A DNA stretch of 64,000 nt, taken from NCBI GenBank assembly GCA_016839555.1, contig JAEOUA010000001.1, positions 1 through 64,000 of the forward strand, given 5' to 3'. Made by a program: the position numbers and the translations under genes. Positions 45,002 to 45,679 of this stretch are shown in pieces (position 1 is the first letter of the stretch; each line of letters starts with the position of its first letter). The notes under the pieces are model-generated. The model worked only from the letters and a program-made list of their open reading frames with translations. It was not told where the DNA came from and searched no databases. The stretch comes from Promethearchaeota archaeon (lineage in GTDB: Archaea > Asgardarchaeota > Lokiarchaeia > Sigyniarchaeales > SOKP01).

Positions 45002-45679
45002 TTATCCTTGCAAAGAACTTTGAAGATCATTTTCAAGCGCTTTAATAATATCTTCACAAGAATCAAGCATTAATCCAACATAATTAAGCACAGTATCTTC
45101 GGTGATGCTTCCAGTCTCTTTTTTTTCTTCAAAAATTAATTCACAAAAACCTTGTATTGTATTTATTCCGCTTCTAATTTTAAGTTGAAATGCTTCCAAG
45201 GGTGTCATTTCATCTTTATCAATATATATCTGTTGTATTTTATTAAAATAGTCCTTAAAAATCTTAAAATCGTCTTTTAAAATGTTTTTCTCGCCAATTT
45301 TTCGGAAAAGCATTTCAATTCTTTTAAAATGGAGTATGGGGAGTAGTGGAAAATCGCTATGCCTTAATAAAATGATAGCATATAATTGTTTTTGACCTCT
45401 TGCTTCCTTATCTTTAATGTCCACTTTACATATCTGCGAATAAAAGTTATAATAATTTAAAATAACAAACTTATTCTTTGTATTTAAAGCATCTCTTAGT
45501 AAATTTTTAATAAACTGATCATTATCAAATTTAATTGGAGAAAATAGAGCTTTAGGACCCAATACATGATCATACTTCCCTATAATTATCAAAAAAGGAA
45601 AATGATCCAAATATTCCTTAACTTCATTTGAAAGTTCAGCATCAGAATTAAAAGGAGCTTTTTCAGATCTTTTTTGCAT
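45002..45679 (-). CDS. Folliculin/SMCR8-like uDENN-longin domain fused to a His-less HisKA (pseudo-DHp) domain
   Basis: YDHVLGP and IKDKEARGQKQLYAII motifs; C-terminal QLKIRSGINTIQGFCELIFEE aligns with the neighbouring H-box SHELRTPLNPIIGFTDLLLEE. Confidence 0.7.
   Translation of the reverse strand: MQKRSEKAPFNSDAELSNEVKEYLDHFPFLIIIGKYDHVLGPKALFSPIKFDNDQFIKNLLRDALNTKNKFVILNYYNFYSQICKVDIKDKEARGQKQLYAIILLRHSDFPLLPILHFKRIEMLFRKIGEKNILKDDFKIFKDYFNKIQQIYIDKDEMTPLEAFQLKIRSGINTIQGFCELIFEEKKETGSITEDTVLNYVGLMLDSCEDIIKALENDLQSSLQG

Follow-up and report, generated by a model that had tools for sequence, protein, structure and literature searches.

A longin domain with a folliculin-type arginine joined to a histidine-less HisKA-derived hairpin in a kinase and GTPase gene island of Lokiarchaeia

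Introduction

What would a small protein do that begins with a longin domain resembling those of eukaryotic GTPase-activating proteins (GAPs), ends in a hairpin derived from a histidine kinase, and is encoded among genes for kinases, receivers and Rag-like GTPases? The question is raised by one gene in a 64,000-nucleotide stretch of archaeal DNA (positions 1 to 64,000, forward strand, of contig JAEOUA010000001.1, assembly GCA_016839555.1; from this point on, the window). The DNA comes from a member of the Promethearchaeota, class Lokiarchaeia, with a genome of 3.7 Mb in 12 contigs; the window is AT-rich, with a GC content of about 0.25-0.30. We refer to the gene product (P0001) as the longin-hairpin protein.

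Asgard genomes encode dozens of small GTPases and many longin and roadblock proteins. Because the GTPase genes are generally not found in operons with longin or roadblock genes (Tran et al., PMC10933270), it is hard to predict which GAP or guanine nucleotide exchange factor (GEF) belongs to which GTPase. The island described here is a concrete set, conserved and co-inherited, that comprises an arginine-finger longin, a Rag-like GTPase with a "WD" longin of its own, six further GTPases, four soluble kinases and two receivers. Within it, the longin-hairpin protein is a testable candidate link between two-component and GTPase signaling.

The protein is a longin of the FLCN/NPRL2 type, with a conserved GP motif and arginine, joined to a HisKA-derived hairpin that has neither the phospho-acceptor histidine nor an ATPase domain. 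As to its role, the reading toward which we lean, at slightly less than an even chance, is that of a homodimeric arginine-finger longin that regulates a Rag-like GTPase of the island and is coupled to the kinases or receivers through what we call its pseudo-DHp, DHp being the dimerization and histidine phosphotransfer domain of histidine kinases. An earlier note on this DNA had described the gene as an arginine-finger longin fused to a histidine-less HisKA domain. That two-domain anatomy is borne out by the structural model, conservation and profile comparison given below, and the coordinates it gave for the open reading frame (ORF), the motifs, Arg94 and Leu166 all agree with the ORF list and the translation.

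The gene and its family

45002..45679, minus strand: longin plus histidine-less DHp-like hairpin gene, 225 codons for amino acids (open ORF, translation)

The ORF is uninterrupted and occurs as a single copy in the source genome. Homologues number 262, with lengths of ~205-236 residues; all are without an assigned name, and they come from Lokiarchaeia or Promethearchaeota assemblies and from sediment metagenomes. When 301 whole genomes of the phylum were searched, the family proved restricted to one Asgard order, where 31 of 75 genomes, belonging to two families, carry the gene:

Taxonomic family of the window itself: 27 of 68 genomes with the gene
Sister family within that order: 4 of 7 genomes with the gene
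Remaining families searched (28): 0 of about 225 genomes

The Protein Atlas feature search returned the family's own cluster and, beyond it, weak leads of at most 0.88. No longer, fused homologues of 395-2000 residues were found, which is weak evidence by the nature of the search. Conservation was counted over 120 homologues with 53-78% identity to the longin-hairpin protein, referred to below as the core family. The Tyr, Asp, Leu, Gly and Pro of the GP motif region, the A-R-G triplet, R169, G177, F178, C179 and C208 are all invariant or nearly so.

The longin domain and its motifs

45215..45601, minus strand: longin domain, residues ~27-155, beta-beta-alpha-beta-beta-beta-alpha followed by helices
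45554..45574, minus strand: GP motif Y36-D37-x3-G41-P42 at the beta1-beta2 turn (conservation, FLCN/C9orf72 spacing)
45371-45418, minus strand: IKDKEARGQKQLYAII, the stretch holding Arg94
45398..45400, minus strand: codon of Arg94, candidate arginine finger in the beta4-beta5 loop, A93-R94-G95 (conservation, ungapped FLCN match)

An AlphaFold2 (AF2) model of the protein, built with 28 homologues, has a predicted local distance difference test (pLDDT) value of 81. The longin core occupies residues 30-126, with further helices up to residue 153, and its fold is that of the longins in FLCN/NPRL2/SMCR8-type GAPs. The best structural matches, with their Z scores, are these:

NPRL2, 8fw5_B: 11.5 (root-mean-square deviation 3.0, 132 residues aligned)
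Lokiarchaeal longin, 8yqg_B: 11.0
FLCN, 6nzd_H: 10.9
Yeast Npr2, 8adl_S: 10.6
Longins of VAMP7, adaptin sigma, TRAPP and Mon1-Ccz1, various entries: 8-9.9

The preference of the modeled longin for GAP-type longins is small but real. For residues 20-150 the earlier note had foreseen matches to longins of this kind; NPRL2, FLCN and Npr2 are indeed among the best in the model comparison, and SMCR8 is also reached by shape searches with Foldseek and the ESM Atlas, which return NPRL2, SMCR8, FLCN, DENND10 and a Heimdall cluster partly annotated as Folliculin. At the level of Pfam models, Folliculin (PF11704) is the sole longin-type family matched, in 28 of the 28 members tested, with a best E-value of 7.2e-5. 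In sequence searches of the PDB, neither the protein nor the family profile retrieved FLCN, NPRL2 or a kinase. The matches to CheY and short helices that such searches produced were dismissed as chance (E at least 0.07).

Within the GP motif region the Asp, Leu, Gly and Pro are invariant and the Tyr is present in 119 of 120 sequences; in the Arg94 loop, Arg and Gly are found in 120/120 and Ala in 119/120. The combination of a GP motif and an arginine finger has been described as a signature specific to GAP-active longins, including a class of Asgard longins (PMC12290439), and the placement given there agrees with that in our model, in which the GP opens strand 2 (41-46) and Arg94 lies in the loop between strand 4 (79-89) and strand 5 (97-107). 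Spacing relative to human proteins is likewise preserved. The FLCN sequence FFIKDSLARGFQRWYSII spans residues 156-173 of PDB chain 6ulg_L, which identifies the FLCN arginine as R164. Ungapped alignment of I88-I103 with FLCN I158-I173 gives nine identities and sets A93-R94-G95 on A163-R164-G165. The GP motif has the same spacing in the longin-hairpin protein (Y36..G41-P42), FLCN (F10..G15-P16) and C9orf72 (W33-D34..G38-P39). The FLCN strings given in the earlier note, with their arginine at 164 and equal GP spacing, prove to match 6ulg_L.

The C-terminal hairpin

45008..45202, minus strand: HisKA-derived helical hairpin, helices 160-189 and 194-224, predicted dimerization module (hhalign, phmmer, model)
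45182..45184, minus strand: codon of Leu166, at the position of the phospho-acceptor His (conservation, hhalign)

When a profile of the hairpin was compared by hhalign with the 15 HisKA domains of the source genome, the probability was 87.8% for a profile of 28 sequences and 93.7% for one of 126. P-values ranged from 3.3e-6 to 1.9e-7, the alignment covered 55 columns at best, and residue 166 fell on the phospho-His. Real profiles scored 34-40, as against 14 for a reversed profile and at most 19.6 for 30 column shuffles. The ungapped H-box alignment with the neighboring kinases, as drawn in the earlier note, is thereby upheld.

An exhaustive phmmer search of 1.8 billion representatives matched P0144 (L010:2277-3947, 556 residues, metagenomic) at an E-value of 2.9e-10. 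P0144 consists of six tandem HisKA-like hairpins, all without the His, for which the summed Pfam HisKA E-value is 1.6e-37; judged by its sequence, this protein bridges our hairpin to HisKA. The N-terminus of P0144 is rich in Ala and Gly. Another candidate, P0146 (2331 residues, 12 phmmer stretches), shows nothing resembling HisKA and was set aside as coiled-coil noise.

For 4 of 6 C-terminal pieces, the highest-ranking of the weak Pfam matches is HisKA. Residues 150-225 of the longin-hairpin protein itself have no match to Pfam HisKA, and 6 of 28 members reach an E-value below 1. HATPase_c finds no match in the protein, which ends at residue 225. Nor is a C-terminal DENN or NPRL2-specific domain present, residues 160-224 being a two-helix hairpin.

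Residue 166 is Leu in 103, Met in 15 and Ile in 2 of the 120 core members and is never His. The residue after the lost His is Lys or Gln in the core family, where HisKA has an acidic Glu or Asp, and Ser or Thr stands at His+4. In HisKA kinases the Thr or Asn at His+4 is the phosphatase position. Like HisKA (PF00512) DHps, the protein has a predicted four-helix-bundle dimer and the H-box flank R-x3-N-x-I-x-G-F, a pattern common to the hairpin and the island kinases; unlike them, it has an N-terminal longin in place of sensor or transmitter domains. Because of the HisKA profile evidence, the Leu, Met or Ile at residue 166 in 120/120 and the missing ATPase domain, "His-less HisKA-derived hairpin" is a fair description of residues 160-224. 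The earlier claim that Leu166 replaces the phospho-His and that no ATPase domain follows is therefore accurate. Loss of the His, in turn, holds for all 120 core members and does not extend to three distant relatives (P0132, P0150 and P0134), which keep it.

Predicted dimer and conserved cysteines

45143..45145, minus strand: codon of Cys179, directly after G177-F178 (Cys in 120/120; also in P0132 and P0134)
45056..45058, minus strand: codon of Cys208, in the second hairpin helix (Cys in 120/120; also in P0132, P0133 and P0134)

Complex prediction with two full-length copies gave an interaction prediction score from aligned errors (ipSAE) of 0.64, versus 0.00 for the best of three controls. Of 30 proteins solved as homodimers, 20 reach the mark applied to this score, as does 1 of 23 that were solved as single chains; these counts are only a rough guide here, as the longin-hairpin protein was run with its own alignment. 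At least 94% of contacts agree between runs, with pLDDT of at least 72. The confident interface comprises residues 161-219 only, with symmetric contacts at 175-175', 197-197' and 204-204'. The protein is thus predicted to homodimerize through the hairpin, as a DHp-like four-helix bundle.

Across the core of this modeled bundle, Cys179 touches Cys208 of the other chain, with an expected error of ~1 A, which suggests a metal, cluster or redox site. Taken as the protein's main business, such a site would make it a redox or metal sensor: the cysteines of both chains would bind a metal or an Fe-S cluster or form a disulfide, and the state of the bundle would set the arrangement of the longins. In keeping with this, both residues are Cys in 120/120, they persist in relatives of 33-35% identity that have no Arg94, and the C179-C208' contact is modeled tightly. 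Small core residues such as Cys are, however, often conserved for packing, the pair forms no known metal-site motif, and it is not universal, since P0133 has Ser at 179 and the variants with a PAS domain have neither Cys. We regard a sensor of this kind as very improbable.

The neighborhood of kinases, receivers and GTPases

42667..44808, minus strand: PAS-GAF-GAF-HisKA-HATPase kinase, 193 nt downstream of the longin-hairpin gene (Pfam)
42186-42635, minus strand: receiver (Pfam)
39887-42142, minus strand: receiver-PAS kinase (Pfam)
38250-39887, minus strand: PAS kinase (Pfam)
46079..48121, plus strand: divergent PAS-HisKA-HATPase kinase, 399 nt upstream of the longin-hairpin gene (Pfam)
31872..33185, plus strand: longin-Rag-roadblock GTPase with a W10-D11-x3-G15 motif, candidate partner and/or substrate
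29631-31178, 33198-34880, 35102-35950, 35983-37032 and 37081-37998: further Rag/Arf-like GTPases (Pfam Gtr1_RagA, Arf)
31343-31714: second receiver (Pfam Response_reg)
48276..49166, minus strand: seventh Rag-like GTPase, with a weak helix-turn-helix (HTH)-like tail (Gtr1_RagA 2.3e-15)

Seven Rag/Arf-like GTPases and the second receiver lie within 16 kb of the longin-hairpin gene. The neighbors listed in the earlier note, namely seven GTPases, four kinases and two receivers, with one kinase on the same strand and one divergent, are all recovered by Pfam. The tail of the seventh GTPase matches HTH_20 and HTH_5 (ArsR-type) at E-values of 0.002-0.006, below threshold.

This setting recurs elsewhere. 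At loci in other genomes, down to 33% identity, a kinase is the first or second neighbor and receivers are present in 8 of 8 cases, and Rag/Arf GTPases occur at all of them except L008, a short 6.4-kb contig. Loci that share the picture seen in the window are L001 and L003-L006 (54-60% identity) and L008 and L009 (33-35%). A same-strand kinase follows directly downstream in L003, L004 and L006, whereas in L001 and L005 one or two short genes come first; in the case of L003, kinases flank the gene at distances of 54 and 26 nt. Since only about 15 HisKA proteins are encoded in the 3.7-Mb source genome, such adjacency is not expected by chance, although the compared loci are related and so are no independent trials. 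The association with kinase, receiver and GTPase genes is conserved across the family and is no accident of the window.

The link to two-component signaling also appears to be old. P0132 (L008:1911-2528), P0134 (L009:8001-8585) and P0150, at 33-35% identity, have a His in the phospho-acceptor column (SHHVR or SHKIR) together with both cysteines, lack the arginine finger and outscore the core family against the kinase profile. The genes for P0132 and P0134 sit between receiver-PAS hybrid kinases and receivers. Spo0B and ChpT are phosphotransfer proteins that consist of a DHp only. Like the longin-hairpin protein, proteins of the Spo0B type lack the catalytic ATP-binding domain; unlike them, it lacks the phosphotransfer His (Leu166). 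The His-bearing relatives, placed as they are among hybrid kinases and receivers, could be phosphotransfer proteins of the Spo0B/ChpT type with a longin head. A search from P0132 gave one further protein only, so this clade is tiny. Because these distant relatives have both the His and the same kinase and receiver neighborhood, the two-component link predates the loss of the His, and they document how a phosphotransfer domain can become a pure scaffold.

In an alternative explanation information flows in the direction opposite to that of the earlier note, from GTPase to kinase. Here the pseudo-DHp would pair with the island kinases or compete with them for receivers; it would oppose the kinases, soak up receivers or serve as a phosphatase-like scaffold that needs no His. 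The longin would be the input, sensing which nucleotide a Rag-like GTPase has bound. The hidden Markov model (HMM) of the hairpin, run against the DHps of the source genome, scores best on those with an H-box of the SHELRTPLNxIIGF type. Its five best matches in the genome include, at 16-18 bits, the DHps of three of the four kinases in the island (39887-42142, 38250-39887 and 46079-48121). The Ser or Thr at His+4 recalls the phosphatase position of HisKA, the PAS-longin-hairpin variants P0136 and P0138 look like the N-terminal halves of sensor kinases, and the His-bearing relatives lie between hybrid kinases in the manner of Spo0B or ChpT. Set against these points, the invariant GP motif and Arg favor a catalytic longin over one that merely senses, a homodimer is predicted with confidence, and Lys or Gln follows the lost His in place of the acidic residue of HisKA. 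We judge this accessory role unlikely.

A candidate GTPase partner and an accessory island

GTPase 31872-33185 has 437 residues and an invariant W10-D11-x3-G15. The spacing equals that of W33-D34-x3-G38-P39 in C9orf72 (checked in PDB 6lt0_C), where the WD pair is essential and faces the arginine finger of SMCR8 (PMC12290439). Pfam gave no match to the extra domains that the neighboring GTPases have at 31872-32261 and 29631-30401; the fold of 31872-32261 was obtained by AF2. Orthologues of this WD-longin Rag GTPase lie on the same contig as the longin-hairpin gene, at distances of 1.4-12 kb, in eight genomes.

The two genes also come and go together. Both genes were scored in 26 genomes of the family, a sample of related genomes that are not independent: 12 carry the pair, 10 carry neither gene and the remaining 4 are discordant. 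Six genera include genomes of either state. In five genomes of 98-100% completeness, scoring of every candidate confirmed the absence. Many near-complete genomes, among them G135, G049, G065, G138, G144 and one of the same genus, have neither the longin-hairpin gene nor the long Rag-like GTPase. Joint presence and absence within genera marks the island as an accessory module that is gained and lost as a unit.

A far-reaching version of the GAP proposal would unite all of these elements. The arginine-finger longin and the WD longin of 31872-33185 would form a pocket like that of C9orf72-SMCR8, GAP activity would be switched by a His-Asp phosphorelay through receivers docking on the pseudo-DHp, and the whole would be a prokaryotic forerunner of FLCN/GATOR1/CSW Rag-GAP signaling; a redox or metal signal might also enter through the invariant Cys pair. 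We think this full scheme improbable.

A different view is that the hairpin is a relic kept for dimerization. The protein would then be a dimeric longin regulator of a GTPase (GAP, GEF or platform) that touches neither kinase nor receiver, its DHp-derived bundle standing in for the DENN or C-terminal domains of FLCN and NPRL2, and its neighborhood would reflect co-regulation or shared inheritance. Several points suit this view: roadblock/longin regulators are generally dimeric (PMC10933270), only the hairpin contributes to the modeled interface, both the His and an ATPase domain are missing, and the island comes and goes as one block. It sits less well with helix 1, where S170, N173, T174, G177 and F178 are near-invariant outside the predicted dimer core, a conservation beyond the needs of a plain coiled coil, and with an adjacency to kinases that reaches down to 33% identity and includes the His-bearing relatives. 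On balance a pure relic seems somewhat unlikely to us.

The proposed role and the evidence against it

Returning to the reading toward which we lean, the longin-hairpin protein would consist of two longins of the FLCN/NPRL2/SMCR8 type, each with its GP motif and Arg94, held together by a four-helix bundle that descends from a kinase DHp. It would serve as a regulatory subunit of a Lokiarchaeia accessory signaling island composed of soluble PAS/GAF kinases, stand-alone receivers and Rag/Arf-like GTPases. The longin would be the arginine-supplying half of a longin GAP, most likely one that acts on a Rag-like GTPase of the island. The best candidate for the target is GTPase 31872-33185, whose own "WD" longin could take the role of C9orf72, FNIP or NPRL3. 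The conserved outer face of the pseudo-DHp may keep contact with island kinases or receivers, and the states of phosphorelay and GTPase would thereby be coupled. GAP activity, the identity of the target GTPase, any contact with receivers or kinases and the direction in which information flows are what we infer here.

Several observations weigh against this role. In the longin, NPRL2 and FLCN lead the generic longins by no more than 1-2 Z units, an uncharacterized Loki longin matches equally well, and Pfam Folliculin is always below threshold (17.4 bits for the longin-hairpin protein versus a cut-off of 23.3). In the hairpin, Pfam HisKA never exceeds its cut-off (13.7-15.4 bits in the relatives versus 26.9), and the fold alone would match any helical hairpin. 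The earlier expectation of a HisKA domain at residues 155-225 is borne out by profile homology. The HMM of the hairpin gives 5.3 bits with the directly downstream kinase 42667-44808, which has a different type of DHp. Because the H-box of that kinase is of the SHDLQEPLR type, whereas the other three island kinases have the SHELRTPLNxIIGF type, the hairpin resembles the remoter island kinases and not its operon neighbor.

The arginine raises a further difficulty. Its conservation is complete in the core family, yet Arg94 is absent from the most distant relatives, P0132, which reads I-E-G there, and P0134, so that not every member of the wider family has the Arg. As these two proteins have kept both cysteines, the Arg may not be the family's oldest functional feature. 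With regard to the dimer, the longin domains lie outside the confident homodimer interface, whereas the eukaryotic longin GAPs are longin heterodimers, and the score might reflect mere likeness, DHp dimers being common among solved structures. Finally, linked genes such as those of the island can vanish by single deletions.

Relation to known systems

The closest eukaryotic counterparts are FLCN, NPRL2 and SMCR8, whose respective partners are FNIP, NPRL3 and C9orf72. The longin-hairpin protein shares with them the longin fold, the GP motif and the A-R-G spacing; as in those systems, there are Rag/Arf-like GTPases, here encoded alongside, and a possible WD-longin partner, as in C9orf72. Unlike them, it has a HisKA-derived hairpin in place of the DENN domain or the C-terminal domain of NPRL2, and its Pfam matches are sub-threshold. 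The eukaryotic proteins are obligate heterodimers, whereas a homodimer is predicted here.

Among prokaryotes, the Asgard Folliculin/SMCR8 longins (PMC12290439, section 2.6) have the same two motifs and pose the same question of whether the client is an ArfR or a Rag GTPase. Those longins are mainly Heimdallarchaeial, and the text describes no kinase-derived domain or kinase neighborhood; our family belongs to one Lokiarchaeia-type order. MglB (PMC10933270) resembles the predicted longin-hairpin protein as a prokaryotic homodimer of the roadblock/longin superfamily, and it regulates the small Ras-like GTPase MglA. It differs in being a roadblock and not a longin, in supplying no arginine finger and in having no kinase-derived domain.

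The nearest precedent concerns domain fusion. A preprint by Liu et al. (bioRxiv 10.1101/2020.10.19.343400) reported that NPRL2-like longins of Asgard archaea are fused in many cases to two-component domains, and it proposed that growth control in these organisms centers on two-component systems with eukaryote-like regulators. The fusions shown in their Fig. 5c, an NPRL2-like longin plus a two-component module, embody the same plug-in idea. The text has no mention of a His-less, ATPase-less DHp, an arginine finger, an island with a WD-longin Rag or His-bearing relatives. "NPRL2-like longin domain" is moreover a category of the Asgard clusters of orthologous genes (asCOGs) that has been applied to Lokiarchaeia (PMC9834061). 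A search of the literature on Asgard and Lokiarchaeota longins and two-component signaling found no paper on the architecture described here. The earlier note's remark that it knew of no description of this mechanism was too strong, given the longin/two-component fusions of Liu et al. and the GP motif and Arg of PMC12290439. The general idea is already published, and within the sources named we found no account of a His-less, ATPase-less DHp, of His-bearing relatives, of a predicted dimer with a Cys pair or of a co-inherited WD-longin Rag island.

If the longin is a GAP, this would be the first assigned pair of regulator and client for an Asgard Rag-like GTPase, it would imply that the catalytic design of FLCN, NPRL2 and SMCR8 predates eukaryotes, and it would offer a test of the two-component growth signaling proposed by Liu et al.

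Variants of the architecture

In P0136, P0138 (~390 residues) and G129:C258:701-1276, the longin is preceded by a PAS domain and by one additional, degenerate HisKA-like helix (residues 137-185 in P0138). Variants of the P0136/P0138 type keep the Arg and have lost both Cys residues and the R-x3-N-x-I-x-G-F pattern from the terminal hairpin; in P0138 the GP motif is lost as well (G-A). P0140 (196 residues), from a short contig, combines the N-terminus of a CDP-archaeol synthase (CarS-like) with the hairpin of the family and is probably a chimeric or frameshifted call.

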